Below are positions 20,881 to 61,881 of a stretch of DNA of 64,000 bases, piece by piece. The position numbers and the translations under genes were made by a program. The notes beneath the pieces were generated by a model. That model was not told the DNA's origin and did no database searches. It saw nothing but the letters and a program-made list of their open reading frames with translations. Every line of letters begins with the position of its first letter. The first letter of the stretch is position 1. This DNA is from Leucoraja erinacea (lineage: Eukaryota): positions 45,012,001 to 45,076,000 of the forward strand of contig NC_073391.1 in the NCBI RefSeq assembly GCF_028641065.1, in the 5' to 3' direction.

Positions 20881-21788
20881 TCATCTTACTAATGTAGTAA
20901 TTCGATTCCAAAGATACAGTGCAGCATTTTTAATTTCCTTCCTGAATTTACTCTGGGTGACTACATAAATGCAGGTGTTGGTGCAAGAGCTCAGAAGCTG
21001 AAGCATGTTTGCATTTTCCTGGCGAATGAACCTTGGGTCGTTGAAATTAGAACCGCTGAAATAGGGTTCCTTTGAAATTTCCACGTAGAGGAAATCAACA
21101 ACGTACGGCATCCACAACAGGATGAAACTGCCCGAGATTAGAAAGAGCAAAACGATGGACTTTCTCCGACTGTCCATCTCTGCGTCGCTCTGCTTTTCTC
21201 CGTGACTCTGGGACACGAGTTTTTTGCGGCCTCTACTCGCCACGAGAATGTGTCTGACCGTCAGAATATTAAAGATCAAAATCAGGACGAACGGGAGGCC
21301 TGGGTTTAAAATGCGTGCGAACCAATCATACATTGTCCAGGCGAGGGATATGCTGTAGATTGGTTTTCTGGTGCAAAACCACGGTTGGTTGTCAATGATG
21401 TAGACTGGTTCGTAGATGAAGTACCAAGGGACGCTTTTCAAACAGCTCAACACACAGATTGTCCCAATGACCGCCGCCGCCGTTCTCTCTGTGCAATATG
21501 TACTCCTCAGCTTCTGGCAACAAATGGCCACGAACCGATCAAAGGTGAATGCGACCGTCAACCAGACCGAACTCTCGATGGCTGCATAAATTGCAACAGT
21601 GCTGAGAGTACAAGCTGGGGTTAAGGACATAAAACTAAATGGGAAATAAATGCCAACAATCCGGTTGAATATAACAGCAGTGATAACGACCAGTAGATCC
21701 GTCACCGCCATGGACAACAGATACCGACTGATGCACTTGGAGAGACCGCATCTTCCTCTGAACAGGATTACAATCGCCACCACATTCA
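20881..21788 (-). CDS. GPR139-like: GPR139/142-like class A GPCR gene A, exon 2 (325 aa with exon 1)
   Basis: 7TM pattern: NVVAIVIL (TM1), YLLSMAVTDL (TM2), SVWLTVAFTFDRFVAIC (TM3), PWFC (ECL2), SFILLWMP (TM6), SSCTNTCIY (TM7); acceptor TTTTCCATCAG at 21789. Confidence 0.92.
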
Positions 21789-22019
21789 CTGATGGAAAAT
21801 AAATTTAAAATTAATAGACGTGTTATCGTATTTATTTTAGTTTAGCCCAGTTGAGTTTAGTCTATTGTCACGTGCACCAAAGTACAGTGAACCCCTTTTT
21901 GTTGCGTGTAACCAGTCCACTGAAAGACAATACAAGATTCGGCTCGAAAGACCGAATGGCCTACACTTGCACCTATTGTCTATTGTCATGATGAAAATCG
22001 AGCCATCCACAGTGGTTCG

Positions 22020-22407
22020 AAACTTATAGAAACTTACAAATTTATTAAGGGGATGGATAGGCTAGATGCAGGAAGATTATTCCCGATGTTGGGGAAGTCT
22101 AGAACAAGGGGTCACAGTTTAATGATAAGGGGGAAATCTTTTAGAACCGAGATGAGAAAATCATTTTTTACACACACAGTGGTGAATCTGTGGAATTCTC
22201 TGCCACAGTAGGTAGTTGAGGCCAGTTAATTGGCTATATTTAAGAGGGTGTTAAATGTGGCCTTTGTGGCTAAAGGGATCAGGGGGTATGGAGAGAAGGC
22301 AGGGACAGGATACTGAGTTGGATGATCAGCCATGATCATATTGAATGGCGGTGCAGGCTCGAAGGGCCGAATGGCCTACTCCTGCGCCTATTTTCTACGT
22401 TTCTATG
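22020..22407 (+). mobile_element. CR1 3' fragment in the gene A intron (duplicated at about 32295-32680)
   Basis: CR1 RT C-terminal sequence and 3' UTR. Confidence 0.85.
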
Positions 22408-23678
22408 GATATTCAAACTATCAGCCGAATGTTTTAAAGTTCTTACAGATAATAGTTTTATAGATTGAGAGCAAAGCGAAAATAAATAGTTCCCGGTATA
22501 ATTTTCTGTCACGAATTTACCCGGAATATTTAGCTCTCAATGTAAAGGCAAGGACACGAGTGCGAAGGATTTGAAGGTATCGCGAAAATCCATTGAATGT
22601 TAGTCGGTATCTATTAGTGAACAATTTTCCCTTTGAGGGGACAATGCAATGAAAATCTAGGTCTCTTCCACTATGGCTGTCAATCTGTACTGCGGCCTTT
22701 CCAGTAACGGTTCAAACACAATGTACCAGTTTCCCTTTACCTTGAAGTGTACTGAGCCTTGACGCATAAGGTATAGCAAGGTAGTGGTGCCACAAATACG
22801 ATACTGATAAGATATTGAACCGCAAGGTACAAAGTCGCCCCAAACTAACCATCAAGTTGCAGAACACAATTAATATTTATCTGTATGCACGCTCAAACAA
22901 TAAACACAATATCGGCGTTAACTTGGATGTGTTAAAGAAAATGATCAGAGAACAGCCTTTACAGTAAATATCCGTAAAGTAAAACGATCAAGAATGTTCT
23001 CCAAGACCCATGAGAAATTGTAGCATCTTCTGAAAACAAATAAGAAGCTCTGGCCCAAGGCCGATTAAAATGAAGACGTTATGCGTGGTAGGAGAGCCCA
23101 CTAGTCTCGTCCGGTAAAGCAAAGATAATCTGTGGCAAAGAGAAGTCCGAAAGTAAGCATGATCTCGCACACCATCCAGCCACCACTGTTGTCCGATAGG
23201 GATCTCCTGGTCTGTTGAATCGCTCTGCGACTTTGGACCATTGACATCGTCCACGTAGATCGGGTAAATTGTGACTTGGAGTGATGGCATACAATCTATG
23301 ATTACGAATTTGCAGTTGAATTTGCATCTTCCCAATTTGCAATCCTTGTGAAATGAATAGAAATACATTTCGGGAAAAGGCATCTCAGGTTGCAAGATCG
23401 ACATTAATCATTTTGTATCATCACTGAGGGTCAGGATTTGTGCAAGCTGGCGTGGTTGATTTCAGCAAGTCCGACAGGAGACCTCTCATCAAAGCCTCAC
23501 ATTTTATAAGTAGTTACCAAAAGTTTGGTTTCGTGACAAATTCTGAAAATGAACCATTGCAGCTTACTTACCGAGGTAGAAACACACAGAGAGATATGTG
23601 CCACCTTGTTAATTGGCAGAAAAACAGCAATTGATTAAACATCGATATATCACTCGCTGATTTAGTACAACGGCTTAC

Positions 23679-23748
23679 CCGGAACGCCGATGGCTGCAAG
23701 AAGTGGGTAATAAATAGCATAAACGGGACCCGTTATTCTGTCGTGCAT
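23679..23748 (-). CDS. GPR139-like: GPCR gene A exon 1 (MHDRITGPVYAIYYPLLAAIGVP)
   Basis: 70 nt; phase-1 donor G|GTAAGC; supplies the N-terminus and first half of TM1 in frame with exon 2. Confidence 0.88.
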
Positions 23749-24242
23749 TGTTCATGAGATGGGTTGGTTTATCCTGAAGGTATTCCGGAGTGCAATTTTG
23801 CCACAACCGACCTCTCAGTTTTACGTGGCGGGAATCCACAGAGATTCAATTAGGTGAACGATGATTCAATTTCTTAAACGAATAAATTTGACACACGTTC
23901 CCTGTGCTCATTTTGTTTTCCAGCCATTGGCCATCGAGGCGAAACAACCGCAGTTGGGTGAGATATAGTTGTGTAGAGAATTGAAGCAACACAGTAGAGG
24001 TGGTTACGTGTTTTTGTCCTGTGTCGCAACATTGTAAATCTAATTTGCACAACACGAAATGCACTTAGATAATACACGGAGGACTCATTCAACGCACGGT
24101 GGATTCACAACACAGAAACATGTCCCACACTGTCATCAATGCCATCCACATTTTCCCCTTTCCATTGCGAACGTTAGATCAGTGTTACGCTGATACAATG
24201 AAAGTCTTGTTTTTAGCAGCATGACAGGCACACAGACCCAGA

Positions 24243-24832
24243 TAGAAACATAGAAAATAGGTGCAGGAGTAGGCCATTCGGCCCTTCGAGCCTGCACCGC
24301 CATTCAATATGATCATGGCTGATCATCCAGCTCAGTATCCTGTACCTGCCTTCTCTCCATACCCCCTGATCCCTTTAGCCACAAGGGCCACATCTAACTC
24401 CCTCTTAAATATAGCCAATGAACTGGCCTCAAATACCTTCTGTGGCAGAGAATTCCAGAGATTCACCACTCTCTGTGTGAAAAATGTTTTTCTCATCTCG
24501 GTCCTAAAAGATTTCCCCTCATCCTTAAACCGTGACCCCTTGTTCTGGACTTCCCCAACATCGGGAACAATCTTCCTGCATCTAGCCTGTCCAACCCCTT
24601 AAGAATGTTGTGAGTTTCTATAAGAACCCCCCTCAATCTTCTAAATTCTAGCGAGTACAAGCCGAGTCTATCCAGTCTTTCTTCATATGAAAGTCCTGAC
24701 ATCCCACGAATCAGTCTGGTGAACCCTTTCTGTACTCCCTCTATGGCAAGAATGTCTTTCCTCAGATTAGGAGACAAAAACTGTACGCAATACTCCAGGT
24801 ATGGTCTCTCCAAGACCCTGTACAACTGCAAC
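24243..24832 (-). mobile_element. CR1 LINE 3' fragment (duplicated at about 34517-35020)
   Basis: LYRVLERPYLEYCVQF..RRLRGVLIETH. Confidence 0.9.
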
Positions 24833-25903
24833 ATTTTTCGATACATCTCTGTGGAAATATTGTTCACACCCACCATCCAAGTTCTACACAAGATTACAAG
24901 ATGTACTCGCTAAGGCGGCCTCATAAAACAGAAAGTGCAAGGTGAGACCTCATAGGCAAATTACAGCATACGCCTTGCATTGCAAACAAGCTCACACAAT
25001 ACACGGTCTGCAAGTAGACAATGAAGGTAACTTATTTTGCACAAGAGCCATTCACCCTGTGTTTCACCTAAAGACGTTGCTGTCGTTTACAAGTAGGAAA
25101 CGTATTATTCAAAACGGTTGACGACCCGTATGTGCTTGTAGATGTTCGTCCATTGCAAGGGATAAAATAGTTAAGAGTCAAGAGTCAGGGTGATTAATGG
25201 CAATAATGGTGCAAAAACAAAGTGGATGTAATTCGGAGCTTATTTAAAGGTTGAAGCGTTTATTAACCCAACGGTTGTAGCAACGAAGCTGCCCATGAAC
25301 CTTGACGTTACAGTTTTCAGGCCCTTATCACTTATTTCCGATGGCAGGAGTGACAGTTCGAAAGGTACATGGACAGGACAGCTTTGGAGGGAGATGGACT
25401 AAACGCGCGCAGATGGGACTAGAATAAAGGGGAGGCCTTCTTAGAATAAAGGGGAGGCCATTTAAGACTGAGGTGAGAAAAAAACCTTTTTCACCCAGAG
25501 AGTTGTGAATTTATGGAATTCCCTGCCACAGAGGGCAGTGGAGGCCAAATCATTGGTTGGATTTAAGAGAGAGTTAGATAGAGCTCTCGGGGCTAGTGTA
25601 ATCAAGGGATATGGGGAGAAGGCAGGCACCGGTTATTGATTGGGGACAATCAGCCATGATCGCAGTGAATGGCGGTGCTGGTTCGAAGGGCCGAATGGCC
25701 TCCTCCTGCACTTATTTTCTATGTTTCTATGTTTTCTAGTGTAGCTGGGACATTTTCGCCGGCGTGGGCAAGTTAGGCCGAAGGGCCTGGTTCCACGCAG
25801 AATCACTCCATGACCCTTAATTTGGTTTGAAAATGAAAATATAGTTAGTTTGAAGTAAAAAAGCACTGCCTGCAAATGGTTGTTTGGGTTGAATTAAAAA
25901 GGC

Positions 25904-28910: not shown

Positions 28911-28947
28911 ATTATGCGTGGTATGTTAGGCGACATTAGGCGAGTGG

Positions 28948-29596
28948 TATGTTAGCTTTCATTGCAAAAGGATTTGAGTATAGGAGCAGGGAGGTTCTAC
29001 TGCAGTTGTACAGGGTCTTGGTGAGACCACACCTGGAGTATTGCGTACAGTTTTGGTCTCCAAATCTGAGGAAGGACATTATTGCCATAGAGGGAGTGCA
29101 GAGACGGTTCACCAGACTGATTCCTGGGATGGCAGGACTGTCTTATGAGGAAAGACTGGATAGACTTGGTTTATACTCTCTAGAATTTAGGAGATTGAGA
29201 GGGGATCTTATAGAAACTTACAAAATTCTTAAGGGGTTGGACAGGCTAGATGCAGGAAGATTGTTCCCAATGTTAGGGAAGTCCAGGACAAGGGGTCACA
29301 GCTTAAGGATAAGGGGGAAGTCCTTTAATACCGAGATGAGAAGAATTTTTTTCACACAGAGAGTAGTGAATCTCTGGAACTCTCTGCCACAGAGGGTAGT
29401 TGAGGCCAGTTCATTGGCTATATTTAAGAGGGAGTTAGATGTGGCCCTTGTGGCTAAGGGAATCAGGGGGTATGGAGAGAAGGCAGGTACGGGATACTGA
29501 GTTGGATGATCAGCCATGATCATATTGAATGGCGGTGCAGGCTCGAAGGGCCGAATGGCCTATTCCTGCACCTAATTTCTATGTTTCTATGTTTCT
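28948..29596 (+). mobile_element. Young CR1 LINE 3' fragment inserted into an older minus-strand CR1
   Basis: Uninterrupted 183-aa CR1 C-terminal ORF and a TTTCTATG tail; older CR1 endonuclease sequence (IMGDFNL) resumes at 29597. Confidence 0.92.
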
Positions 29597-30152
29597 ATTA
29601 CTCAATACCCAATCTAGAATAGCCTGCTCTCTCGTTGGTTCCTCTACATGTTGGTTTAGAAAACTATCCCGCATACATTCTAAGAAATCCTCTTCCTCAG
29701 CTCCCTTGCCAATTTGATTCACCCAATCTATATGTAGATTGAAGTCACCCATTATAACCTTTGTTGCACGTATTTCTAATTTCCTGTTTGAGGCCATCCC
29801 CAACTCCACTACTACTGTTGGGTGGCCTGTACACAACTCCCACTAGCGTTTTCTGCCCCTTGGTGTCTCGCAGCTCTACTCATATCGATTCCACATCCTC
29901 CAAGCTAGCGTCCTTCCTTTCTGTTGCGTTAATTTCATCTCTAAATAGCAACGCTACCCCACCTCCTTTTTTTAACAGAATCCCGCGGTCTAGGCATAAG
30001 CTTAGGGGCGACCGCGTCTTTGTGATTGCAGCTCCTAGACTGTGGAACAGCATCCTCCTTCCCATCAGAACTGCCTCCTCCATCGACTCCTTTAAGTCAA
30101 GACTCAAACTTTATCTATACTCCCAAGCCTGGATGGATTTAAGAGATAGCAA

Positions 30153-30408: not shown

Positions 30409-30905
30409 TTAAATAGAGCTCTAGATCCTAGTGGAGTCAAGGGATATGGGGAGAAGGCAGGCATGGGTTATTGATAGGGAACGATCAGCCATGATCACAA
30501 TGAATGGAGGTGCTGGCTCGAAGGGCCAAATGGCCTCCTCCTGCACCTATTTTCTATGTTTCTATGTTTCTATGTAATGAACAGACGTCTCCTCTCTTTT
30601 AATCTCCCCTTTCGCGCCCTTGCACTTCTAAACTGCTCTTTCTCTGTCACCCTAACACTATATTCACCACTCGGTATACTCTTTCTTTCGTGTACCCTGA
30701 TGTACCCGTCTATGCTGCAATTTGCCTGGAATGCACGCAAACACAGTTTTCAATGTATCTCGATACAGGTGACAATAATAAACCAACACACATCCCAATT
30801 ATTTATCGGCCATTTATCGTCCAATACCAATACATTAGATAATGCCAGATCGATGGTCGTTGGATAACAAGATTTCTTCGCACGATTAGCCAAAGTTGAG
30901 ATTTA

Positions 30906-31141
30906 TGCCCCTGTCCCACTTAGGGAACCTGAACGGAAACCTCTGGAGACTTTGCGCCCCACCCAAGGTTTCCATGCTGTTCCCGGAGGTTCCCGGAGGT
31001 TCCGGGAGGTTTCTGTCAGTCTACCTACCTGCTTCCACTACCTGCAACCTCCGGCAACCTCTGGGAACCGCACGGAAACCTTGGGTGGGGCGCAAAGTCT
31101 CCAGAGGTTTCCGTTCAGGTTTCCTAAGTGGGACAGGGGCA
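30906..31141. mobile_element. PIF/Harbinger-type MITE, TTA TSD
   Basis: Duplicated counterpart of 20642-20867. Confidence 0.85.
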
Positions 31142-31154
31142 TTAAAGGTTGCCC

Positions 31155-32062
31155 TCATCTTACTAATGTAGTAATTCGATTCCAAAGATACAGTGCAGCA
31201 TTTTTAATTTCCTTCCTGAATTTACTCTGGGTGACTACATAAATGCAGGTGTTGGTGCAAGAGCTCAGAAGCTGAAGCATGTTTCCACTTTCCTGGCGAA
31301 TGAACCTTGGGTCGTTGAAATTAGAACCGCTGAAATAGGGTTCCTTTGAAATTTCCACGTAGAGGAAATCAACAACGTACGTCATCCACAACAGGATGAA
31401 ACTGCCCGAGATGAGAAAGAGCAAAACGATGGACTTTCTCCGACTGTCCATCTCTGCGTCGCGCTGCTTTTCTCCGTGACTCTGGGACACGAGTTTTTTG
31501 CGGCCTCTACTCGCCACGACAATGTGTCTGACCGTCAGAATATTAAAGATTAAAATCAGGACGAACGGGAGTCCTGGGTTTAAAATGCGTGCGAACCAAT
31601 CATACATTGTCCAGGCGAGGGATATGCTGTAGATTGGTTTTCTGGTGCAAAACCACGGTTGGTTGTCAATGATGTAGAGTGGTTCGTAGATGAAGTACCA
31701 AGGGACGCTTTTCAAACAGCTCAACACACAGATTGTCCCAATGACCGCCGCCGCCGTTCTCTCTGTGCAATATGTACTCCTCAGCTTCTGGCAACAAATG
31801 GCCACGAAACGATCAAAGGTGAATGCGACCGTCAACCAGACCGAACTCTCGATGGCTGCATAAATTGCAACAGTGCTGAGAGTACAAGCTGGGGTTAAGG
31901 ACATAAAACTAAATGGGAAATAAATGCCAACAATCCGGTTGAATATAACAGCAGTGATAACGACCAGTAGATCCGTCACCGCCATGGACAACAGATACCG
32001 ACTGATGCACTTGGAGAGACCGCATCTTCCTCTGAACAGGATTACAATCGCCACCACATTCA
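31155..32062 (-). CDS. GPR139-like: GPR139/142-like GPCR gene B, exon 2 (325 aa with exon 1)
   Basis: Near-identical paralog of A (6 aa differences counted); intact 7TM ORF. Confidence 0.92.
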
Positions 32063-33952
32063 CTGATGGAAAATAAATTTAAAATTAATAGACGTGTTAT
32101 CGTATTTATTTTAGTTTAGCCCAGTTGAGTTTAGTCTATTGTCACGTGCACCAAAGTACAGTGAACCCCTTTTTGTTGCGTGTAACCAGTCCACTGAAAG
32201 ACAATACAAGATTCGGCTCGAAAGACCGAATGGCCTCCTCTTGCACCTATTGTCTATTGTCATGATGAAAAACGAGCCATCCACAGTGGTTCGAAACTTA
32301 TAGAAACTTACAAATTTATTAAGGGGATGGATAGGCTAGATGCAGGAAGATTATTCCCGATGTTGGGGAAGTCTAGAACAAGGGGTCACAGTTTAATGAT
32401 AAGGGGGAAATCTTTTAGAACCGAGATGAGAAAATCATTTTTTACACACACAGTGGTGAATCTGTGGAATTATCTGGCACAGTAGGTAGTTGAGGCCAGT
32501 TCATTGGCTATATTTAAGAGGGTGTTAAATGTGGCCTTTGTGGCTAAAGGGATCAGGGGGTATGGAGAGAAGGCAGGGACAGGATACTGAGTTGGATGAT
32601 CAGCCATGATCATATTGAATGGCGGTGCAGGCTCGAAGGGCCGAATGGCCTACTCCTGCGCCTATTTTCTACGTTTCTATGGATATTCAAACTATCAGCC
32701 GAATGTTTTAAAGTTCTTACAGATAATAGTTTTATAGATTGAGAGCAAAGCGAAAATAAATAGTTCCCGGTATAATTTTCTGTCACGAATTTACCCGGAA
32801 TATTTAGCTCTCAATGTAAAGGCAAGGACACGAGTGCGAAGGATTTGAAGGTATCGCGAAAATCCATTGAATGTTAGTCGGTATCTATTAGCGAACAATT
32901 TTCCCTTTGAGGGGACAATGCAATGAAAATCTAGGTCTCTTCCACTATGGCTGTCAATCTGTACTGCGGCCTTTCCAGTAACGGTACAAACACAATGTAC
33001 CAGTTTCCCTTTACATTGAAGTGTATTGAGCCTTGACGCATAAGGTATAGCAAGGTAGTGGTGCCACAAATACGATACTGATAAGATATTGAACCGCAAG
33101 GTACAAAGTCGCCCCAAACTAACCATCAAGTTGCAGAACACAATTTATATTTATCTGTATGCACGCTCAAACAATAAACACAATATCGGCGTTAACTTGG
33201 ATGTGTTAAAGAAAATGATCAGAGAACAACCTTTACAGTAAATATCCGTAAAGTAAAACGATCAAGAATGTTCTCCAAGACCCATGAGAGATTGTAGCAT
33301 CTTCTGAAAACAAATAAGAAGCTCTGGCCCAAGGCCGATTAAAATGAAGACGTTATGCGTGGTAGGAGAGCCCATTAGTCTCGTCCGGTAAAGCAAAGAT
33401 AATCTGTGGCAAAGAGAAGTCCGAAAGTAAGCATGACCTCGCACACCATCCAGCCACCACTGTTGTTCGATAGGGATCTCCTGGTCTGTTGAATCGCTCT
33501 GCGACTTTGGACCATTGACATCGTCCACGTAGATCGGGTAAATTGTGGCTTGGAGTGATGGCATACAATCTATGATTACGAATTTGCAGTTGAATTTGCA
33601 TCTTCCCGATTAGCAATCGTTGTGAAATGAATAGAAATACATTTCGGGAAAAGGCATCTCAGGTTGCAAGACCGACATTAATCATTTTGTATCATCACTG
33701 AGGGTCAGGATTTGTGCAAGCTGGCGTGGTTGATTTCAGCAAGTCCGACAGGAGACCTCTCATCAAAGCCTCACATTTTATAAGTAGTTACCAAAAGTTT
33801 CGTTTCGTGACAAATTCTGAAAATGAACCATTGCAGCTTGCTTACCGAGGTAGAAACACACAGAGAGATATGTGCCACCTTGTTAATTGTCAGAAAAACA
33901 GCAATTGATTAAACATCGATATATCACTCGCTGATTTAGTACAACGGCTTAC

Positions 33953-34022
33953 CCGGAACGCCGATGGCTGCAAGAAGTGGGTAATAAATAGCATAAACTG
34001 GACCCGTTATTCTGTCGTGCAT
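33953..34022 (-). CDS. GPR139-like: GPCR gene B exon 1 (MHDRITGPVYAIYYPLLAAIGVP)
   Basis: 70 nt; G|GTAAGC donor. Confidence 0.88.
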
Positions 34023-35719
34023 TGTTCATGAGATGGGTTGGTTTATCCTGAAGGTATTCCGGAGTGCAATTTTGCCACAACCGACCTCTCAGTTTTACGT
34101 GGCGGGAATCCACAGAGATTCAATTAGATGAACGATGATTCAATTTCTTAAAGGAATAAAATTGACACACGTTCCCTGTGCTCATTTTGTTTTCCAGTCA
34201 TTGGCCATCGAGGCGAAACAACCGCAGTTGGGTGAGATATAGTTGAGGAGAGAATTGAAGCAACAGAGTAGAGGTGGTTACGTGTTTTTGTCCTGTGTCG
34301 CAACATTGTAAATCTAATTTGCACAAAACGAAATGCACTTACATAATACACGGAGGACTCATTCAACGCACGGTGGATTCACAACATAGAAACATGTCCC
34401 ACACTGCCATCAATGCCATCCACATTTTCCCCTTTCCATTGCGAACGTTAGATCAGTGTAACGCTGATACAATGAAAGTCTTGTTTTCAGCAGCATAACA
34501 GGCACCCAGACCCAGATAGAAACATAGAAAATAGGTGCAGGAGTAGGCCATTCGGCCCTTCGAGCCTGCACCGCCATTCAATATGATCATGGCTGATCAT
34601 CCAGCTCAGTATCCTGTACCTGCCTTCTCTCCATACCCCCTGATACATTTAGCCACAAGGGCCACATCTGACTCCCTCTTAAATATCGGTCCTTAAAGAT
34701 TTCCCCTCATCCTTAAACCGTGACCCCTTGTTCTGGACTTCCCCAACATCAGGAACAATCTTCCTGCATCCAGCCTGTCCAACCCCTTAAGAATGTTGTG
34801 AGTTTCTATAAGAACCCCCCTCAATCTTCTAAATTCTAGCGAGTACAAGCCGAGTCTATCCAGTCTTTCTTCATATGAAAATCCTGACATCCCACGAATC
34901 AGTCTGGTGAACCCTTTCTGTACTCCCTCTATGGCAAGAATGTCTTTCCTCAGATTAGGAGACAAAAACTGTACGCAATACTCCAGGTATGGTCTCTCCA
35001 AGACCCTGTACAACTGCAACATTTTTCGATACATCTCTGTAGAAATATTGTTCACACCCACCATCCAAGTTCTACACAAGATTACAAGATGTACTCGCTA
35101 AGGCGGTCTCATAAAACAGAAAGTGCAAGATGAGACCTCATAGGCAAATTACAGCATACGCCTTGCATTGCAAACAAGCTCACACAATACACGGTCTGCA
35201 AGTAGAAAATGAAGGTAACTTATTTTGCACAAGAGCCATTCACCCTGTGTTTCACCTAAAGACGTTGCTGTCGTTTACAAGTAGGAAACGTATTCTTCAA
35301 AACGGTTGACGACCCGTATGTGCTTGTAGATGTTCGTCCATTGCAAAGGATAAAATAGTTAAGAGTCAAGAGTCAGGGTGATTAATGGCAATAACGGTGC
35401 AAAAACAAAAGTGGATGTAGTTCGGAGCTTATTTGAACGTTGTAGCGTTTATTAACCCAACGGTTGTAGCAACGAAGCTACCCATGAACCTTGACGTTAC
35501 AGTTTTCAGGCTCGTATCACTTATTTCCGATGGCAGGAGTGACATGAGAGTGTGGCCAGACTGGTGTGGGCTACTGATGATGCTGGTTGCCTTTTTGAGG
35601 CAGCGACTCTTGTACATCCCTTTGATGGTGGTGATGGTGTGTGTGTGGGTGTGTGTGTGGTGGGGGGGGGGGGGTTTATTACCTGTGATGGACAGAGCTG
35701 TCTTCACCATTCTTACCAC

Positions 35720-37895: not shown

Positions 37896-38788
37896 TCATT
37901 CACGAAACATTCTTAATGGAAATGTAAACATTTTCTTTAACTCTTCCCTGAATCTTCTCTGGATTGCTGCATAAATGAAGGTGTTAGTGCAAGAGCTCAA
38001 GAGTTGAAGCATGTTTCCGGCTTCCTGGAGAATAAACTTGGGGTCATTGAAGCTTTTGAAGTTGTAGTCGTTTGTGATGCGGACGTACAGGAACTGTACA
38101 ACATACGTCATCCACAAGAGGATGAAACTTCCGGAGATAGTGAAGAGCAAAATGATGGACTTCCTTCGACTTTCCATCTCTGGGTCGCTCTGAGTCTGTC
38201 CATTGCTCTGGGCCCGGAGCCTCCTGCGGGCTCTGCTGGCCGCCAGGATGTATCTCACCGTCAGCGCGTTCAGCAGCAAAATCAGGAGGAACGGGAGACA
38301 CGGGGTGGAAATTCTATCAAACCAGTCCAGTGCTGTCCACACTGGCGAAGTGTAACGGATTTCCTTCAGCCTGCAATACCACGGAACGTTGTCGATTATA
38401 TAGATAGGCTCGTGTATAAAATACCATGGGATATTGCTCAAAAATCCCAACACACACACTGTTCCTATGACCACTGTTGCTGTTTTCTCGGTGCAATATT
38501 TTGCTTTCAGCTTCTGACAAGAAATAGCTACAAACCGATCAAAGGTGAAAGTCACCGTTAACCAGACGGAACTGACCCTGGCTGCATATGTCACCGCAAT
38601 AGTAAGACTACAGACTGGGGTGATGGATAGGAAGCTGCCCGCAAAGTAAATCCCACCGATCCTGTTGATTATGACCGCGGTGATAATGACAAGAAGATCC
38701 GTCACTGACATGGACAGCAGGTAGCGAGTGATGCATTTGGACAGACCGCATTTGTTTTGTGACAAAACCACGATCGCCGCTAAATTGG
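37896..38788 (-). CDS. GPR139-like: GPR139/142-like GPCR gene C, exon 2 (320 aa with exon 1; second subfamily)
   Basis: NLAAIVVL, YLLSMSVTDL, SVWLTVTFTFDRFVAIS, PWYC, SFILLWMT and SSCTNTFIY; acceptor TGATTTCAG at 38789. Confidence 0.92.
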
Positions 38789-39111: not shown

Positions 39112-39414
39112 TAAGTATGCGGTCTTGATTCTTTAAAGCATCGACACTGATATACTGTGCTCTCCCAAGCAGGAGTTTGAACTTTCAGTGACATTGAGCT
39201 TATTACAAGTCTGACGTCTTAAGTCTGAAGAGAGGTTCCAACACGAAACGCCACCTATTCCGTTTCTTCAGAGATGCTGCCTGTCCCGCGGTGTTACTCC
39301 AGCATTGTGTGTCTACCTTTGGTATAAATCCGCATCTGCAGTTCCGTCCTACGCTGAATAAAAGTCATGATATGCCCAAACCATTCAGGCGTTCATTACA
39401 TTATTCTCAGAATT

Positions 39415-40052
39415 TTAGCTTTCATTGCAAAAGGATTTGAGTATAGGAGCAGGGAGGTTCTACTGCAGTTGTACAGGGTCTTGGTGAGACCACACCTGGA
39501 GTATTGCGTACAGGTTTGGTCTCCAAATCTGAGGAAGGACATTATTGCCATAGAGGGAGTGCAGAGAAGGTTCACCAGACTGATTCCTGGGATGTCAGGA
39601 CTGTCTTATGAAGAAAGACTGGATAGACTTGGTTTATACTCCTTAGAATTTAGGAGATCGAGAGGGGATCTTATAGAAACTTACAACATTCTTAAGGGGT
39701 TGGACAGGCTAGATGCAGGAAGATTGTTCCCGATGTTAGGGAAGTCAAGGACAAGGGGTCACAGCTTAAGGATAAGGGGGAAATCCTTTAAAACCGAGAT
39801 GAGAAGAACTTTTTTTCACACAGAGAGTGGTGAATCTCTGGAACTCTCTGCCACAGAGGGTAGTTGAGGCCAGTTCATTGGCTATATTTAAGAGGGAGTT
39901 AGATGTGGCCCTTCTGGCTAAGGGGATCAGGGGATATGGAGAGAAGGCAGGTACGGGAAACTGAGTTGGATGATCAGCCATGATCATATTGAATGGCGGT
40001 GCAGGCTCGAAGGACCGAATGGCCTACTCCTGCACCTAATTTCTATGTTTCT
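39415..40052 (+). mobile_element. Young CR1 3' fragment in the gene C intron
   Basis: LAFIAKGFEYRSREVLLQLYRVLVRPHLEY... Confidence 0.92.
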
Positions 40053-41020
40053 AATTGATGGGACATCGTCGGCAATACACTCATTCTGGGCGAATGTTAC
40101 ATTAGAAATTAATCGTGTAACATTACTCGAAGTTAACGCAATCCTCTTCTTGGAGCGATTTACCTTCCAACGTGTCTTACATTAATTTGCTACTTAATTT
40201 GGGAGAATCATTAATTCGGGGAATGCAGTATTTCCATTCCGTCATCAAATCATCTCTAAAGTTTCTTTAGCAGCGCGTTAGGTTCAGGGGCAATATCTAT
40301 TACTAATTTAGTTCACTGCTAGAATGGACCTTGACCAAGTTTCTGCGGTTGGCTGAGTTCAGGTGCGATACTGGCAAGGATTGCTCAGCAGGGCCGATAT
40401 CACGAACATGAAACTTTTTACAGCGCACGGCTGGGTTCGCATCGAATAAAGAGATCCACAATAAACCTGGTTTCTCTATTCCGGTAGACAATTTAATTGC
40501 CTACTAGAAAATAATAACTTCATAGCTAATAGCTTCTTCCCCTGAAACATGGTTGCGTGACAAGGGACCATCAAGCCGGGCTACGAAATTTTGAATACAC
40601 CCAAAATGGTGGAAGGCCATTCAAAAAGCCGGACATCATGTATGGAGAAATTCTCCAGCCTTTTCCCAAATACCTTGGTTTCAAGTTTAACTTGATATCG
40701 CTTGTCCTATAGGAGGAGAGTTGTCTTTCTGTTTGCCCCATTTATTCGTTTCAATATGTTAACCCTTCCTTCATTATTTAAACAGAATGAACCGCTATCC
40801 AATTTTACAGAATCTGTCCTTATTAATTAGCCATCGATATACCGGCAACACTTCTGAATCTAGTATTCATTTCTTTGGAAATTGTGCTCAGGGCAGAATT
40901 AATTTTTCAGAATGAAGTTCGATCAAAGCTAATTGCAAATATAATACACTCGCCGGTCTGTGCCGAGCCATGGCTTGACTAGAACAATTACAAAAATGGA
41001 AATCGGACTGCAACCCTTAC

Positions 41021-41090
41021 CTGGAACAGCGATAACTGCAAGTGCCGTATAGTAAATGGCATACGGCAATCCTGTGGGCGGGGCGTGCAT
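41021..41090 (-). CDS. GPR139-like: GPCR gene C exon 1 (MHAPPTGLPYAIYYTALAVIAVP)
   Basis: 70 nt; G|GTAAGG donor; in frame with exon 2. Confidence 0.88.
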
Positions 41091-41576
41091 GTTCTCTGTA
41101 CAGTTGACACGTTTGACCAAGATTCCACGCACAAACCTCGCCTTTCATTGTTTATGGACTCCCTTATTATACTTGTTGCCACGCCAATGGAGACCAATAC
41201 GTCTCATTACAAACAGAGTTAGTTCCAGTCACCGAACAAACAATTCAGGTTGCATCATATAGTAGATTCAGGTAAGAAATTCGTGCTGAAAATGACACTT
41301 TAATTGGGGAAGCGGGTATTACAGAATTACACACCAAAATCCTTTGTCTGTCATTCATTGAAGCATGAGTCCAATCATCATTGCCCAGTCCGATGTTAGT
41401 ACCACTCCAATCCCACCTCGCTTCCATTGACTGCAAACTGCCCTTTAATCACGTTGAAAAGTGCAAGAATAAGATTAGTCTACCGCGTACATTGGAGTCG
41501 AATGGGATAAAAGCCAAGATAAACCATTCTAGTCAACTCTACATTTTAGTTTTAGAGAAGGATATCTAGATATTGG

Positions 41577-48673: not shown

Positions 48674-48722
48674 CCTAATTGCCTCTCTGTGGATTCCGTA
48701 TGCCTATAACTAACTGAGAGGT
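48674..48722 (+). promoter_or_regulatory. Conserved proximal promoter block of subfamily I GPCR genes
   Basis: CCTAATTG..TCTCTGTGGATTCC..AACTGAGAGGT is shared with the gene A upstream region (23810-23854, - strand). Confidence 0.5.
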
Positions 48723-48780: not shown

Positions 48781-48850
48781 ATGCACGGCAGAATAAGTGG
48801 TCCCGTTTATGCCATTTACTACCCGCTTCTTGCAGCTATTGGAGTTCCGG
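48781..48850 (+). CDS. GPR139-like: GPCR gene D exon 1 (MHGRISGPVYAIYYPLLAAIGVP)
   Basis: 70 nt; G|GTAAGA donor. Confidence 0.88.
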
Positions 48851-51586: not shown

Positions 51587-52491
51587 TTAATTTGGTGGCG
51601 ATTGTAATCCTGTCCCGGGGAAAGTGCGGTCTCTCCAGATGCATCAGTCGGTACCTGGTGTCCATGGCGGTGACGGATCTACTGGTCGTTATCACCGCTG
51701 TCATCTTCAACCGGATTATTGGCATTTATTTCCCATTTAGTTTTATGTCCTTAACCCCAGCTTGTACTCTCAGCACTGTTGCAATTTATGCAGCCACCGA
51801 GAGTTCTGTCTGGCTGACGGTCGCTTTCACCTTTGATCGGTTCGTTGCCATTTGTTGCCCGAAGCTGAACAGCATATACTGCACCGAGAGAACGGCGGCG
51901 ATTGTCATTGGGACAATCTGTGTGTTGAGCTGCCTCAAAAGCGTCCCCTGGTACTTTATTTACGAACCCCAGTACATAGTTGACAATAAACCCTGGTTTT
52001 GTAGCGTAAAACCCAGTTACAACACCATAGGATGGACTGTGTATGATTGGTTTGCGCGCATTTTAAACCCTGGGCTCCCGTTCGTCCTGATACTACTATT
52101 GAACGCGCTGACGGTCAGACACATCCTAGTCGCCAGCAGAGCGCGCGCGAGACTCATGTCCCAGAATCAGGGAGATAAGCAGAGCGACGCAGAGATGGAA
52201 AGCCGGAGGAAGTCCATCATTTTACTCTTCGCCATCTCGGGCAGCTTCATCCTGTTGTGGATGACGTACGTGGTTGATTTCCTCTACGTTCAGTTTTCAA
52301 AGGAACCCTATTTCAGTGGTTCCAACTTCAACGACCCAAGGTTCATTCGCCAGGAAAGTGGAAACATGCTGCAGCTGTTGAGTTCATGCACCAACACCTG
52401 CATTTATGTAGTGACCCAGCGTAAATTCCGGGAGGAGATAAAGAATGCGGTGCTATTTCTTTGCCATGCATTTGCTTCGTTAAAAAGATAG
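51587..52491 (+). CDS. GPR139-like: GPR139/142-like GPCR gene D, exon 2 (324 aa with exon 1)
   Basis: Acceptor CTCTCTCACAG| at 51586; intact 7TM ORF most similar to A and B. Confidence 0.92.
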
Positions 52492-52977: not shown

Positions 52978-53160
52978 TTACTGAGCGCACAATGGCATCG
53001 CTGGGGGAACCGCTGCCTCACGGCGCCAGACACCCCGATTCGGTCCAGAACATCGCACATTCTCGCTTGTGACTTTCCTCTGTTTGCTCCGGTTTTCTCC
53101 CACATTGCAAATATTCGAGGGTTTGCAGGTTAATTGGCTTTCGTATAATTCCCCTAATGT

Positions 53161-55179: not shown

Positions 55180-55184
55180 GTGTG

Positions 55185-55252
<68 letters not shown>
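55180..55252 (+). repeat. (TA)n microsatellite in the tail of a Rex1/Babar fragment (54875-55390)
   Basis: Direct inspection. Confidence 0.9.
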
Positions 55253-55256
<4 letters not shown>

Positions 55257-57594: not shown

Positions 57595-57880
57595 ACCGAG
57601 CGGCACAGTGGCATCGCTGGGGGAACCGCTGCCTCACAGCGCCAGAAACCCCGATTCGGCCCTGAACATTGCACATTCTCGCTAGTGACTTTCCTCCGAA
57701 TGCTCCGGTTTCCTCCCACATTGCAAAGATGTGAGGGTTTGCAGGTTAATTGCCCTTTGCAAACAGAAAGTTCCCCTAATGTTTCGGGAGTGAAAAGGTG
57801 GGGTACCACAGAACAAGAGCGAACGGACGATCGATGGGTGGCATGGACTCGGTGGGCCGAAGCGCCCGTTTCCATGCTAT
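57595..57880 (+). mobile_element. HE1/V-SINE-like element
   Basis: tRNA-like head GGCACAGTGGC..GCTGCCTCACAGCGCCAGA and V-domain CTCCGGTTTCCTCCCACA. Confidence 0.6.
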
Positions 57881-59369
57881 ATGTGGGGGGGGGGGGGGGG
57901 GGGGGAAACAAAATATCATACATCTGAGCACGTAAAAAAACGATTGGTCCTCTGGCGATCGCTTATGTTCCTCGTGCGTGCTCCAAAGCCGCAACCTTCT
58001 CGTGTTAGTGGGAGATCGATCAATCAATCAGATTTATTCATCACATACACGATAGAGTGCAGTGAAATGAATTTGCCAGCAACGGTACAATCAAAAAGAA
58101 CAGACAATACACAATAAGAATTGAACACAAACATCCACCACAGCGTTCTTCACTGTGGTGGAAGACACAAATTACAGTCACTCCTCCTCCATTGTCCCTC
58201 CGTGATCGGGGCGATAAACTTCCGCAGTCGCCGCTGCGGGCGGCCAGATGTACAGGCCCACTCGTCTGGAAGGTCAGTCCCGAATAGATAAAATAAAGCG
58301 CGAAATATGAGCGGCAGCGGTAAGCCATGCACACCATCGAGGCCGCTCTGTCATTCGAGCATATCATGGCTGACCCATAAGATGTCACGCCCTATTTCCA
58401 CTTTGCTCAACTTCCTCCATTCCCCCATGCTCAGCTCTGCTTCGAATACCTCAGTGCCTCACGATCCCACACTGTCCAATGTAAATATTTCAAAAAGCAA
58501 TTTTTAAATATATTCTCAAGCAAATTGTGTCTATCAAACAATTTATCCACCTGTCGGTGCCCTGAATTATAAACATCATGGGAATTTGGTTATTGTTACG
58601 CCTTCTATGAGTTTCATGCTTTGCATTGAGACAATGTCCCTCCTGTAGACTTCAGGTTCATTTCAATGCGGTTCATTTCAATATTAAGTGGAACGAGATC
58701 AACCTTTCACTGATACTTCGTTGAACGAAAGTTCATCAGCGTAATGTAAACTCATTAATCTTAAAGTCAGAAAACTCAAGGTTTTCAAGTACAATTGTCA
58801 AGTGCATTCCTTCCCATTTTATTTGATCAGTCAGAAAAATATTTTAATTGACTGAATTGACAATGGCGTAATATATGATCTAATTAACGTTGGGTGTTCA
58901 GAGCAAATCGGAGGTCTGTTTCTCCCGCCTGATATCACATTTGATCAGCATTCACGGGTCAAACAATCATGGAATCAAGGATTCGTTCAATTACCAGACC
59001 TGAGATGGACACCATTCAGTTCGCGTTGCCCACTGAGTTTTTGAAATCGAACAATGCAGTCTGGCCAATTTCCGTGCTGTTTCTGCAAACATATACAAAT
59101 GATTCCCGATGAAGTGTCATAGCAATTTTTTTTTTTATATTGCATGATTATACTCCATCCGTGCCATAGCCAATTATATCAGGGTCCTAATTATACTCGT
59201 TTCTATCAAATCTTGGCATTGTCTGCGATGCAAAGTCTGCACTGCCCGGGCATGGTGAACGGATGTTCTTCTATACCCGTCAAGTACAGTTTTGCCCAAT
59301 GTCCTCTCAACCACCTTAGCTCCAGAAAGTATACGGCCCAACATACCTCATGTTCATCGTCCCTGAAAC

Positions 59370-60330
59370 TATGCAAGCAACTGACGCGGACGGAGTCTCT
59401 GGCCGCGTCCTGAAGAACTGTGCGGACCAATTGTCGGGCCTGTTCACGGACATGTTTAATCTCTTCATACTCCGTTCTGAGGTACCCACCTGCTTCCAGA
59501 ATGCCACCGTCACCCCGATGCGAAGGAAAACGTAATAAGTCGTAATGCCTTATTGAGTGCAGTCCAGTGGCCTTGACATCCACCGTTCACCTGAAGCTCA
59601 GTGCTCGTTAGACGGTGGAATTAATTGTGAACTTTCGGAGAGCTCCCCTCCGCACCCCCCACTCACCATGAACAACACAATAACCACATCTGTGGAGTCA
59701 TTTAAGTTCCTTGGAACCATCATCTCCAGTGACTTTCAATGGGAGGCCATCATCGACCCCACAGTCAAAAAGGCCCAACAGAGGATGTATGTCCTGTGGC
59801 AGCTGAGAAAACACAATCTGCCACAGGCAATGATATTCCAATTTATACTGCAATCATAGAGTCTGTCCTCCCCTTCTCCATCATGGTCTGGTTTGGCTCA
59901 GCCACAAAGCATGACATCCGGAGGCTGCAGGGCATCTTCCGATCAGCCGAGACGGTTGTCGGTTGCAATCTTCCCCCCATCGAGGAACTGTACACTGCAA
60001 GGGCCAGGAAGCGAGCGGGTAATGTTATCTCTGACCCCTCTCACCCTGGCCACAAACTCTTTGAAGCACTTCCCTCTGGAAGGCGACTCCGGACTGTCAC
60101 AGCCAGACATAAAACAGTTGTTTTTCCATGAGCAGTAGCGCTACTCAACGGGCAAATGTCTAGAGCCTCCTTTTGCTCTGATATTTTATTTCATTCTTAT
60201 CATGTTTAATTTATAATGGGTTTTTATAGTCTACTGTATCGTGTTGTTACTTGCGCGCAAAGAACCGAGGCAAATTCCGTGTATGTATACATACTTGGCT
60301 AATAAAATCTATTCAATTCAATTCAATTCA
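59370..60330 (+). mobile_element. Rex1/Babar LINE fragment
   Basis: DGVSGRVLKNCADQL, FKFLGT, KKAQQRMY, LPSGRRLR and an (ATTCA)n tail. Confidence 0.85.
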
Positions 60331-61040
60331 ATTCAATTAACTTCTTTGAGAGGCTAGTTATGGAATACATTAAATCCAGCCTACCAAGCAACTTTTGAGA
60401 AGGTTCCGCTCCTTCAACTTCTACCAATCGGTGGTAGCCAGTGCCATCTTCTTCGCTGCCGTGTGCTGGGGCACTAGGGCGAAGGCTGCGGACGCCAATA
60501 GGATCAACAAACTCATCAGAAAGACTGGCTCCGTCCTGAGGGCGGAGTTGGATCCATGGGAGGTGGTCTTGGAGGGGGGGATGCTCCTCAAACTGCGGCA
60601 TATCATGGACAATACATCCCCTGCATGACATACTGGTCAACCTGAGGAGTTCGTTCTCTATAAAATAATCCGGTGTGCGGGGCGAGCGGGGGATGGGGGT
60701 TTTTGTGCGTTCCAAGGAATGGAGCCCCAACCTACTCGACCTCTGCCTACAGCTTAGACCCTCTAGTCCTGGCAACATCTTCGTAAATATCTGTACCCCT
60801 TCCAGTTTGTCAACATCGTTCCTATAACACGGTACCCAAAACTGAACACAACACCCTAAATGTGGTCTCACCAACGTCTTATACAACTGCAACGTGACCT
60901 CTCAACTTCTATACTCAATACTCTGTCTGATGAAGGCCAATGTGCTTTAATGTATTGACAGTTTAAAACGACAGTCGGCATGCAATATTGTTGGTGTGTA
61001 ATTTGTATGGCATTTAAACCATATTTGGTAATAACCATAG

Positions 61041-61519
61041 TGTTTAAGAAGGAACTGCAGATGCTGGAAAATCGAAGGTACACAAAAATGCTGGAGAAAC
61101 TCAGCGGGTGCAGCAGCATCTATGGAGCGAAGGAAATAGGCAACGATTCGGGCCGAAACGGGCTGAAGGGTTTCGGCCCGAAACGTTGCTTATTTCATTC
61201 GCTCCATAGATGCTGCTGCACCCGCTGAGTTTCTCTAGCATTTTTGTGTACCTTGTCCTATCCATGTGCCTGTCAAACTGGTTCTGAACCATTGGGATAG
61301 TCCCAGCCTCAACTAACTCATCTGGCTGCTGGTTCCATACACCCACCACCCTTTGTTTTAAAAAAAGTGACCCCTCAGATTCCCATTAAGAAAGGGAAAA
61401 GGTTCTCACCTCCACCCCCCATCAGTCTGAAGAAGGGCTTCGGCCCGAAACGTTGCCTATTTCCTTCGCTCCATAGATGCTGCTACACCCGCTGAGTTTC
61501 TCCAGCATTGTTGTGCACC
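61041..61519. mobile_element. Composite Penelope-derived element (fold-back, CR1 piece, extra terminal repeat) with 17-bp TSD
   Basis: TTTGGTAATAACCATAG at 61024-61040 and 61520-61536. Confidence 0.7.
61423..61458 (+). ncRNA. Minimal hammerhead ribozyme-like motif (Penelope type)
   Basis: CTGAAGA-A-GGGC-TTCG-GCCC-GAAA-CGTT: both core boxes, a UUCG-capped stem II and a palindromic AACGTT stem III; stem I pairing is weak. Confidence 0.5.
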
Positions 61520-61737
61520 TTTGGTAATAACCATAGGTGTCCGTGTTTCAAGGCCACAGAATTTTGTTTTACGATTTTCGATCATCCCGTTGTGTAAATC
61601 CTACGGCGAATCAAAAAAAGCGAATCTGTTTGTTAATTGCGTCAACGGTGATGTAATCTGAACATATTTGTTCGGTGGGTGGAACTAATGTTCAATTGTT
61701 GTTGAGTCGAATTGACTTCATTAGGATTTGCAATCGG

Positions 61738-61745
61738 TATAATAA
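61738..61745 (+). promoter_or_regulatory. TATA-like box in the conserved subfamily II promoter
   Basis: TATAATAAGGGA is shared with the gene C upstream region (41164-41171, - strand). Confidence 0.5.
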
Positions 61746-61811
61746 GGGATCCATTGGAACATTTAGTCTTATGCGTGGAATCACGAAACAAACATCTCTG
61801 CGACAAAGACC

Positions 61812-61881
61812 ATGCACGCCCCGCCCACCGGATTATCTTATACCATCTATTACACTGCACTTGCCGTCATCGCTGTTCCAG
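61812..61881 (+). CDS. GPR139-like: GPCR gene E exon 1 (MHAPPTGLSYTIYYTALAVIAVP); exon 2 not in the window
   Basis: 70 nt; 21 of 23 aa identical to gene C exon 1; G|GTAAAG donor. Confidence 0.82.

Follow-up and report, generated by a model that had tools for sequence, protein, structure and literature searches.

In GPR139, the Trp/Phe site comprises residues F3x33, H5x43, W6x48 and N7x38 (part of PMC5430874), and in fish TAARs amines are bound by Asp5.42 (part of PMC4695389). Mouse olfactory receptor (OR) promoters, as described in part of PMC5318403, contain homeodomain, O/E and MEF2A sites and usually lack a TATA box. The Greek-Island composite probe has an Ebf site one base from TAATTG, and the mouse composite works less well when 2 bp are inserted (part of PMC5608512). 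Olfactory receptor repertoires of cartilaginous fish are held to be very small, and the catshark has 32 canonical V2Rs (part of PMC11979771). The window analysed here (the whole stretch of 64,000 nt from the skate Leucoraja erinacea) carries five genes, A-E, of a receptor family known to date from sharks and rays only, with several hundred members in skate.

Read from the sequence, each of the five is an intact class A GPCR gene of two exons, with a GT-AG intron and a product of 320-326 aa. The coding part of exon 1 starts at ATG and extends for 70 nt (23 codons plus one base) to a GT. Gene A (exon 1 coding part MHDRITGPVY..., 23679..23748; exon 2 from the remainder of TM1 to the stop, 20881..21788), gene B (33953..34022 and 31155..32062) and gene C, of the MHAPPTGL subfamily (41021..41090 and 37896..38788), lie on the minus strand. 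Gene D (48781..48850 and 51587..52491) and exon 1 of gene E (61812..61881) lie on the plus strand. Exon 2 of E is just past the window end, at window-equivalent 64238-65148 (C15:45076238-45077148, plus strand), and only A-D are complete in the window. Splicing to the AG acceptors gave products of 325 (A), 325 (B), 320 (C), 324 (D) and 326 aa (E). DRF was present in all five; the TM7 motif was NTCIY in A, B and D and NTFIY in C and E, and the TM6 motif was LWMT in B, C and D, LWMP in A and LWMA in E. The earlier note had reported these motifs for five genes and they hold in every one; however, because exon 2 of E is outside the window, its DRF and NTFIY cannot be read from the window letters. 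The note's strand assignments, its divergent C/D pair and its two subfamilies hold, and its claim that the N-terminus lacks an N-glycosylation sequon was confirmed: a scan of all five products over their full length found N-x-S/T in none. A and B arose by recent tandem duplication. The unit with A (20454..24412) and the copy with B (30720-34686) were 97.6% identical across 3,979 nt, with 10 differences in the 908 nt of exon 2, and the two products differed at 6 residues.

All 40 exon-1 candidates in 654 kb begin with MH exactly 23 codons upstream of the donor, and among 92 full-length homologs from sharks and rays, 90 have M plus 22 residues before x-N1.50. The MH start at a fixed distance from the donor is not due to chance. 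The 70-nt, 23-codon, phase-1 segment, described earlier as an invariant first exon, proved to be the coding part of exon 1 in the five genes. Its length is fixed only within their clade; elsewhere in the genome it is 20-27 or more codons. A TATA-like box was found 57-94 nt before the ATG in 48 of 51 anchored promoters; thus, the whole of exon 1 is longer, at a predicted 100-135 nt or so.

Pfam search of family proteins gave 7tm_1 matches (E 1e-20 to 6e-25) and a weak Srx match besides. The core residues N1.50, D2.50, R3.50, P5.50, W6.48, N7.49, Y7.53 and the C3.25-C45.50 pair were each conserved in 75-78 of 78 paralogs. An AF2 model of a skate ortholog made with an alignment (pLDDT 85; single-sequence 43) had a seven-helix fold with class A matches; Foldseek placed GPR139 first but about level with NTSR1 and CXCR2, and so did not discriminate. 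The family thus consists of class A (rhodopsin-like) GPCRs. The OR family proper was ruled out by the two coding exons and by the lack of any 7tm_4 match in the same Pfam search.

In a tree that used 28 family rows out of 78 skate models plus 120 homologs, the family formed one clade (support 100/100). Its sister was a third single-copy gene of jawed vertebrates (100/96), and two amphioxus proteins branched between this pair and GPR139/142. Together these groups formed a clade against protostome FMRFamide-receptor-like proteins (100/98). An AU test, run on a quick tree of 36 of 56 rows with groups named after the tree was seen, rejected a clade of the family and GPR139/142 (p=0.022) and an all-vertebrate clade (p=0.026). 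GPR139 (C20) and GPR142 (C23) are each present in skate as a single-copy gene of their own, and family identity to them was 18-26%. The designation "GPR139/142-like" therefore did not survive as a statement of closest kinship; relationship within the wider lineage did, through the clade and a shared intron. The family is a distant cousin of GPR139, not a GPR139/142 duplication. A phase-1 intron lies between G-x-P and x-N1.50 of TM1 in the family, the sister gene and skate GPR139 and GPR142, as read from donor and acceptor for GPR142 and from the acceptor for GPR139; a pattern search for GPR139 exon 1 matched only that of GPR142. Because skate GPR139 and GPR142 carry this intron too, the split TM1 is inherited and no novelty of the family. 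The family and its sister gene have in common a short N-terminus, a DRF-like motif, T6.50 and a TM7 without Pro. Shark orthologs exist for both subfamilies, which indicates that these are older than the shark-ray split.

The skate cluster at C15:44.0-45.1 Mb contains at least 87 family genes, including those of the window. Of 23 chromosomal family clusters, 11 are subtelomeric. One TM3 motif had 550 exact copies genome-wide (reversed control, 0) and was present in 50 of 73 sampled family members, from which about 800 members are estimated, pseudogenes and haplotigs included. The evidence thus supports the birth-and-death repertoire proposed in the earlier note, at a size well beyond a single array. 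In the same genome, class C receptor matches of all kinds numbered 24 among 51 candidates, and the OR profile had 1 match among 99. No description of the expansion was found in the literature searched, which excluded subscription journals and bioRxiv supplements. The family sits under the automatic annotation label "probable GPR139". The ESM Atlas holds chordate clusters with this label, together with FMRFamide-receptor-like clusters.

Sequence entropy, computed on exon-2 frames of at least 280 aa, was 2.01 bits at pocket positions versus 0.84 at inner TM positions (78 paralogs, p 1e-9). The sister gene reversed this pattern (0.64 versus 0.91; 79 orthologs). The 15-residue pocket fingerprints took 72 distinct forms among the 78 paralogs. 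Within the C15/C989 clade by itself, pocket variability was not above that of outer non-pocket positions (p 0.17). dN/dS was 0.28 overall, 0.30 in the pocket and 0.17 at inner TM positions (26 pairs), and no position class exceeded 1 by pooled NG86, so positive selection was not detected. The family evolves under purifying selection. An acidic residue occupied 5.39 and/or 5.42 in 71 of 78 paralogs and 3.32 in none.

Consensus matching revealed a TAATTG homeodomain-type site adjoining an EBF-like site in the promoters of A (23835..23852, minus strand), B (34109..34126, minus) and D (48676..48710, plus), followed in D by a TATA-like box. The promoters of C (41166..41200, minus) and E (61709..61743, plus) matched a loose pattern only, with a degenerate composite site and a TATA-like box. 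Motifs were then counted, by consensus match only, in 55 non-redundant promoters out of 68 family upstream regions; since family promoters are homologous, the counts are not independent. EBF-like sites occurred in 31 of 55 promoters versus 9 of 273 control stretches, and 25 of 30 placed sites lay 11-30 nt upstream of the TATA box. The TAATT+EBF composite was found in 13 promoters versus 2 of 273 controls (shuffle mean 0.4), with 1-2 nt between TAATTG and the EBF-like site; 12 of 37 C15/C989 promoters had it. CRE/ATF-like sites occurred in 24 of 55 promoters versus 7 of 273 controls, and MEF2-like sites in 10 of 18 dispersed members versus 20 of 273. A loose O/E pattern was not enriched (32/55 promoters, 85/165 controls). 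EBF and MEF2 are B-cell factors too.

Two V segments (V-set), neither of them mentioned in the earlier note, lie in the window within the receptor cluster, both on the plus strand: one at 6276..6622 with a 23-bp-spacer RSS, whose nearest counterparts in the genome are the TCR alpha/delta-type V arrays of C1519 and C1211, and one at 17205..17514 with a CACAGTG heptamer, 21-bp spacer and nonamer. We take these to be TCR-type by likeness; a PDB search did not separate TCR from Ig. The TCR alpha constant profile matched nowhere, which is uninformative, and no TCR constant gene was located; a V-segment homolog search for TCR-locus synteny in other species yielded 2 candidates, none of which scored. 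An IgNAR-like locus (C15:44.798-44.821 Mb) also lies inside the C15 cluster. C989 shows an alternating arrangement of 7 family genes and 17 RSS-bearing V segments, and V and family matches co-occur on C924, C928, C977 and C1316. Five of the 23 chromosomal clusters lie within 100 kb of Ig-domain clusters, where 0.16-0.5 were expected under a null that left out other tandem families. The C8 V-set matches and the C17 C1 match, without the RSS pattern, were counted as Ig-domain clusters and not as antigen receptors. The enclosure of an IgNAR-like locus and of RSS-bearing, putatively TCR-type V segments by the family cluster is new.

Varied pockets and promoter motifs like those of smell receptors suggest that the family is likely an overlooked set of chemical sensors. 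More specifically, we tentatively favour, at a little under an even chance, the reading that A-E are intact members of a several-hundred-gene family forming a chemosensory repertoire, with predicted expression in olfactory-type sensory cells. This reading draws on family size, the variable pocket, the acidic TM5 and the positioned OR-like promoter motifs. The family would descend from a single ancestor with a short N-terminus that had been sister to GPR139/142 from early chordates on; bony vertebrates would have retained it as one gene, and tandem and subtelomeric duplication would have multiplied it in cartilaginous fish. Each gene would be transcribed from a TATA promoter under the control of EBF (O/E) and homeodomain factors. 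The ligands would be amines or basic peptides in water or mucus, not Trp/Phe, bound by acidic residues at 5.39/5.42 and 3.37, and signalling would go through Gq/PLC, as for GPR139. Against a chemosensory role, no transcript of A-E was seen in the runs searched. X6 and X7 (presumed-RNA runs, tissue not stated) gave one contig each matching 98 nt of exon 2 at ~81%, as a paralog would, with no exon1-exon2 joint. Runs X1, X2 and X4 covered introns evenly and had no joint, and thus behave as DNA; neither set of runs speaks for or against expression of A-E. In part of the catshark study (PMC11979771), the 50 top-ranking brain-and-olfactory genes include no GPCR, and only V2Rs are considered olfactory. 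Other observations that run counter to this role are the TATA promoters, their homology, which makes motif counts non-independent, the 1-2-nt composite spacing, the clade-level pocket result, the lack of any position class with dN/dS over 1, the position of the window clade among IgNAR and TCR-type V genes, the five clusters near Ig-domain clusters, the sharing of EBF/MEF2 with B cells and the EBF-like sites found within 700 nt upstream of 7 of 19 V exons. A bolder form, possible but doubtful in our judgement, would make the family the fifth, main olfactory family of sharks and rays: several hundred genes from a peptide-receptor-like sister gene of GPR139 that remained single in bony vertebrates, with an independently acquired O/E-homeodomain code, amines or basic peptides bound via aspartates of TM5 and, as for ORs in mammals, a clade lodged between TCR alpha/delta V segments.

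The antigen-receptor surroundings raise a different prospect: the receptors would serve leukocytes or barrier tissues and detect cationic metabolites and peptides of microbes or of the host, with the genes kept in and near antigen-receptor and other Ig-domain clusters and driven in lymphocytes by EBF1/MEF2/CREB. The enclosed IgNAR-like locus and V segments, the alternation on C989, the co-occurrence on four further contigs, the five clusters near Ig-domain clusters and the CRE/ATF-like sites all point that way, as does the expression of catshark OR genes mostly outside the nose, some in spleen (part of PMC11979771). However, 18 of the 23 chromosomal clusters have no listed Ig-domain cluster nearby, and 11 are subtelomeric, so co-location may stem from common duplication-prone regions. 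The TAATTG+EBF composite was absent from all 19 stretches upstream of neighbouring V exons, and octamers were not enriched (5/70 versus 5/70). The mammalian TRA/D locus also contains OR genes, which are not known to have an immune role. We consider an immune repertoire unlikely. A sensor role outside olfaction, in chemosensory or neuroendocrine cells (skin, gill, gut, taste, reproductive tract), or a division of organs among clades, would fit the differences among clades in N-terminus and promoter make-up (the composite in C15/C989, MEF2-like sites in dispersed members), and the short X6/X7 matches weakly hint that some paralog is transcribed. This alternative is decidedly unlikely, since the composite resembles the olfactory one.

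If the family were for the most part duplication-prone DNA whose copy number drifts neutrally, with few copies functional and haplotigs inflating the counts, this would account for the near-identical A/B duplicate and the matching patterns of matches on C924 and C989. Many family matches also fall on small unplaced contigs among the matches listed, beyond which lie 450 of the 550 motif matches. However, in 654 kb, 38 of the 39 exon-2 frames that have an acceptor reach at least 293 aa, dN/dS is low, shark orthologs of the subfamilies persist and promoter motifs stay positioned. Drift, already weakened by these findings, is very improbable. The aromatic amino-acid role proposed in the earlier note, that of GPR139/142-type L-Trp/L-Phe sensors, was not supported. 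GPR139 was the best PDB match by sequence (E 9e-11) and by fold, barely above NTSR1; W6.48 was present in 75 of 78 paralogs, and window genes had N7.39 and an aromatic 3.33 (4 of 5). However, all four Trp/Phe-site residues were kept in 0 of 78 paralogs, three in 2 and two in 42; the 5x43 position was mostly D instead of H, and R6.51 occurred in 6 of 78. The family also does not form one clade with GPR139/142, and GPR139 is also reported as a dynorphin receptor (part of PMC12287315). Trp/Phe sensing is very unlikely.

The family is at least twenty times larger than the known olfactory sets here (24 class C and 1 OR match). If olfactory, it would change the view that cartilaginous-fish repertoires are very small, and if it is a fifth olfactory family, the "tiny shark repertoire" would be artefactual, the product of searches confined to four known families. 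If immune, it would be a previously unrecognised innate receptor repertoire. The sister gene, which zebrafish-type fish, frogs and reptiles have in single copy, is a tractable entry to ligands and to the question of how one gene gives rise to a receptor repertoire.

The surroundings partly resemble the elasmobranch antigen receptor complex, AgRC (Flajnik et al. 2025, part of PMC12227049), where one region combines an IgNAR cluster with V exons of TCR alpha/delta type, a number of them scattered between clusters. The AgRC is marked by linkage of IgH clusters, TCR alpha/delta genes and PSMB5; an IgNAR-like cluster and RSS-bearing, putatively TCR-type V segments were observed here. That study dealt with four other species, and its main text and two supplementary files never mention GPR, GPCR or coupled receptor. 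With OR, TAAR, V1R-ORA and V2R-OlfC repertoires the family shares hundreds of clustered, partly subtelomeric paralogs, a variable pocket and, as candidates by consensus, homeodomain, O/E and MEF2-like promoter sites, and with non-classical TAARs the acid at 5.42. However, it is an unrelated lineage with an intron-split coding region and TATA promoters, and its olfactory role is predicted only. GPR139 and GPR142 (PDB 7VUG, 9M42) are its best PDB match and agree with it in the position and phase of the intron, in N5.58, in a TM7 motif without Pro and in L6.47-W6.48. They differ in being single genes in skate, in their longer exon 1 (45 codons in skate GPR142) and in lacking the C3.25 disulfide pair; the family lacks their Trp/Phe-site residues. 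The sister gene (skate C24:9977230-9978189) is possibly GPR210A or GPR210B of Rinne et al. 2019 (PMC6504862). It occurs once, with its pocket conserved, in sturgeon, coelacanth, amphibians, reptiles and teleosts, has ERF in place of DRF and S/C in place of W6.48, and by eye lacks the EBF+TATA module in the 250 nt upstream of its ATG. However, it shares with the family the phase-1 intron, short N-terminus, C3.25-ECL2 disulfide pair, T6.50, the missing Pro at 7.50 and 24-31% identity.

The five two-exon class A GPCR genes of the window (A, B, and C on the minus strand, D and E on the plus strand) belong to a skate family that is real, intact, under selection, and far larger than the five genes of the earlier note. 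Four long 7TM frames and five ATG-start 70-nt segments flanked by GT were found in the window. Splicing by script gave predicted products A-E of 325, 325, 320, 324, and 326 aa, all free of internal stops and N-glycosylation sequons; exon 2 of the spliced model of gene E (+) starts 238 nt past the window end. These models agree with the motifs, strands, lack of sequons, and two subfamilies (I, genes A, B, and D; II, genes C and E) described earlier. The 70-nt first exon attributed to five genes was recovered as five segments; however, because TATA-like boxes lie 57-94 nt upstream of the ATG in 48/51 anchored promoters, the 70 nt represent only the coding part of exon 1. Genes A and B are a tandem duplicate (97.6% alike). 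Between the window genes, LINE fragments of CR1/L2 type, ~240-bp short palindromic repeats, and long CT tracts are abundant at many sites (e.g., 28940-29600, 39358-40060, 20638-20871, and 30902-31145).

Searching the genome with exon 2 yielded 1,488 candidates; at least 87 of the best 131, which were scored, lie at C15:44.03-45.14 Mb, on the contig of the window, which itself occupies C15:45,012,001-45,076,000. In the 654 kb around the window, exon-2 frames with an acceptor reached at least 293 aa in 38/39 cases, and 40/40 exon-1 candidates had an MH start at codon -23; several fragments and one stop-bearing frame were also present. The exact motif FTFDRF[VI]AI had 550 genome copies (control, 0) and was carried by 50 of 73 members sampled independently of the motif. 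These values would give ~800 family copies, a fair estimate that counts in pseudogenes and haplotype duplicates. The genome-wide count bears out an expanded array, but its size is far above five genes. In the same genome, class C receptors gave 24 matches of 51 candidates and an OR profile gave 1 of 99. At E ≤ 1e-8, 2,756 relatives were found in the protein database; named entries among the best 120 are from sharks and rays only, nearly all with the automatic name "probable G-protein coupled receptor 139". Our literature search found no paper describing the family. The coding part of exon 1 has 20-27 or more codons in clades other than that of C15. The Met-His start (e.g., window 48781-48786) is invariant in the C15 clade (40/40 in the cluster, 91/92 shark and ray homologs) and absent from dispersed family clades; it might bind metal or cap the pocket.

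Skate GPR139 (C20:0.75 Mb) and GPR142 (C23:10.93 Mb) are single-copy and 55% alike, and a class C-type gene lies no more than 35 kb from either; the mammalian genes likewise have one nearby. A divergent match at C24:9.98 Mb was a third single-copy gene, GPR139-like in sequence (C24:9977230-9978189; termed the sister gene). It is conserved in sharks, and sturgeon, coelacanth, bowfin, amphibians, turtles, squamates, and teleosts also have orthologs; the best 120 matches include none from mammals or birds. Two database records join the sister gene to TMEM183A, suggesting that TMEM183A is its neighbour. In a 56-row IQ-TREE analysis, support was 100/100 for the family, 100/96 for family plus sister gene, 99/92 with two amphioxus proteins added, and 100/98 with GPR139/142 also included. 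Both a family-GPR139/142 clade and an all-vertebrate clade were rejected by AU tests (36 rows; p = 0.022 and p = 0.026, respectively), moderate values involving long branches. A phase-1 intron before x-N1.50 is common to the family, sister gene, GPR139 (seen by its acceptor only), and GPR142 (seen at both splice sites); family and sister gene have in common a short N-terminus, T6.50, and a Pro-less TM7. The family is related to GPR139/142 but outside that group, and the C24 gene is its sister in the tree; the earlier reading as "GPR139/142-like" amino-acid receptors is not supported. Genes A/D clustered with horn shark and catshark proteins and C/E with a sevengill protein, indicating that the subfamilies are older than the shark-ray split. 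Rinne et al. (PMC6504862) named GPR210A/B as GPR139/142 relatives in fish and coelacanth; the word "shark" is nowhere in the accessible text of that paper.

In an AlphaFold model built with an alignment for the Rhinoraja ortholog (pLDDT 85), TM1 starts at residue 8; the fold matches are class A receptors, among which GPR139 ranks first by a very narrow margin. Of 78 paralogs, 75-78 retain the activation residues and the disulfide pair. Entropy at positions we take to be the pocket, from generic numbering, was highest in the 78 paralogs (2.01 bits; outer non-pocket 1.51, inner 0.84) and lowest in 79 sister-gene orthologs (0.64; outer non-pocket 1.03, inner 0.91). Pocket and outer non-pocket variability did not differ within the C15/C989 clade alone (p = 0.17). 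Across 26 independent pairs, dN/dS was 0.28 (0.22-0.37) overall; pocket positions gave 0.30 and inner positions 0.17. Selection is purifying and relaxed outside; positive selection is without proof. All four GPR139 site residues (taken from PMC5430874) were kept in 0/78 paralogs, and the amino-acid (Trp/Phe) sensing proposed earlier is unlikely. An acid occurs at 5.39 or 5.42 in 71/78 paralogs, at 3.37 in 62/78, and at 3.32 in 0/78. Because fish TAARs are reported to bind amines through Asp5.42 (PMC4695389) and GPR139 to bind dynorphin via Gq/11 (PMC12287315), the family ligands may be cationic.

The best reading of the family, held tentatively, is a chemosensory repertoire; the main rival, an immune repertoire, is rather unlikely. 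Antigen-receptor elements are close by. The window contains two V-set segments with a recombination signal (RSS), both lone and on the plus strand, for which leader exons were not found: 6276-6622, with a 23-bp spacer, whose nearest genomic V is only 42% identical and for which a word search found no database homologs, and 17205-17514, with an unusual 21-bp spacer. Inside the receptor cluster, C15:44798318-44821480 contains an IgNAR-like cluster made up of one V with 23-RSS, five C domains, and a TM exon. On C989, 17 RSS-bearing TCR alpha/delta-type V segments are interleaved with 7 family genes, one of which falls in the C15 clade in the tree; V and family matches also occur together on C924, C928, C977, and C1316. 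The match patterns of C924 and C989 agree, suggesting alternative haplotype copies of one region. Genome-wide, 5/23 chromosomal family clusters lie within 100 kb of Ig-domain clusters (both lists partial), where a uniform null predicts 0.16 and a subtelomere-matched null 0.5, and this count was reached in 0/20,000 draws; 11/23 family clusters are subtelomeric. The arrangement is consistent with the elasmobranch antigen receptor complex (PMC12227049), in whose accessible text and two supplements GPCRs are unmentioned. At C3:9.81-9.85 Mb, each of two family genes has a stop-bearing C1-set exon ~10 kb away; these pairs are a co-duplicated unit of receptor and Ig-domain remnant. A gap in the C15 cluster holds two single-frame class A GPCR-like genes of another family (C15:44915076 and 44927184; 344- and 361-aa frames), and C2H2 zinc-finger clusters lie inside (C15:44.62-44.64 Mb) and just past (45.145-45.175 Mb) the receptor cluster.

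Three sequencing runs behaved as DNA, and two runs guessed to be RNA gave one contig each, with 98 nt matching a paralog at ~81%. The catshark paper (PMC11979771), in its accessible parts, considers only four known receptor families, leaves GPR139 unnamed in the main text, and lists no GPCR among the top 50 olfactory genes.

We compared 55 non-redundant upstream regions of the family with 273 controls. EBF-like sites were present in 31/55 family promoters vs. 9/273 controls, and of the 30 sites that could be placed, 25 lay 11-30 nt 5′ of TATA; CRE/ATF-like sites in 24/55 vs. 7/273; and a composite of TAATT and EBF-like sites in 13/55 vs. 2/273. The composite is strict in A, B, and D and loose in C and E. 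MEF2-like sites were found in 10/18 dispersed members, and a looser O/E pattern was not enriched in family promoters. Upstream of 19 V exons, the composite was found in 0/19 and a lone EBF-like site in 7/19. EBF and MEF2 are active in B cells too. Since they are, and since the family promoters are homologous, motif likeness to OR promoters can serve only as a lead. Mouse OR promoters are reported to have homeodomain, O/E, and MEF2A sites and usually no TATA (PMC5318403), whereas skate family promoters bear TATA-like boxes. In the Greek-Island composite, one base separates TAATTG from the Ebf site (PMC5608512); in the skate family, the gap is one or two bases.
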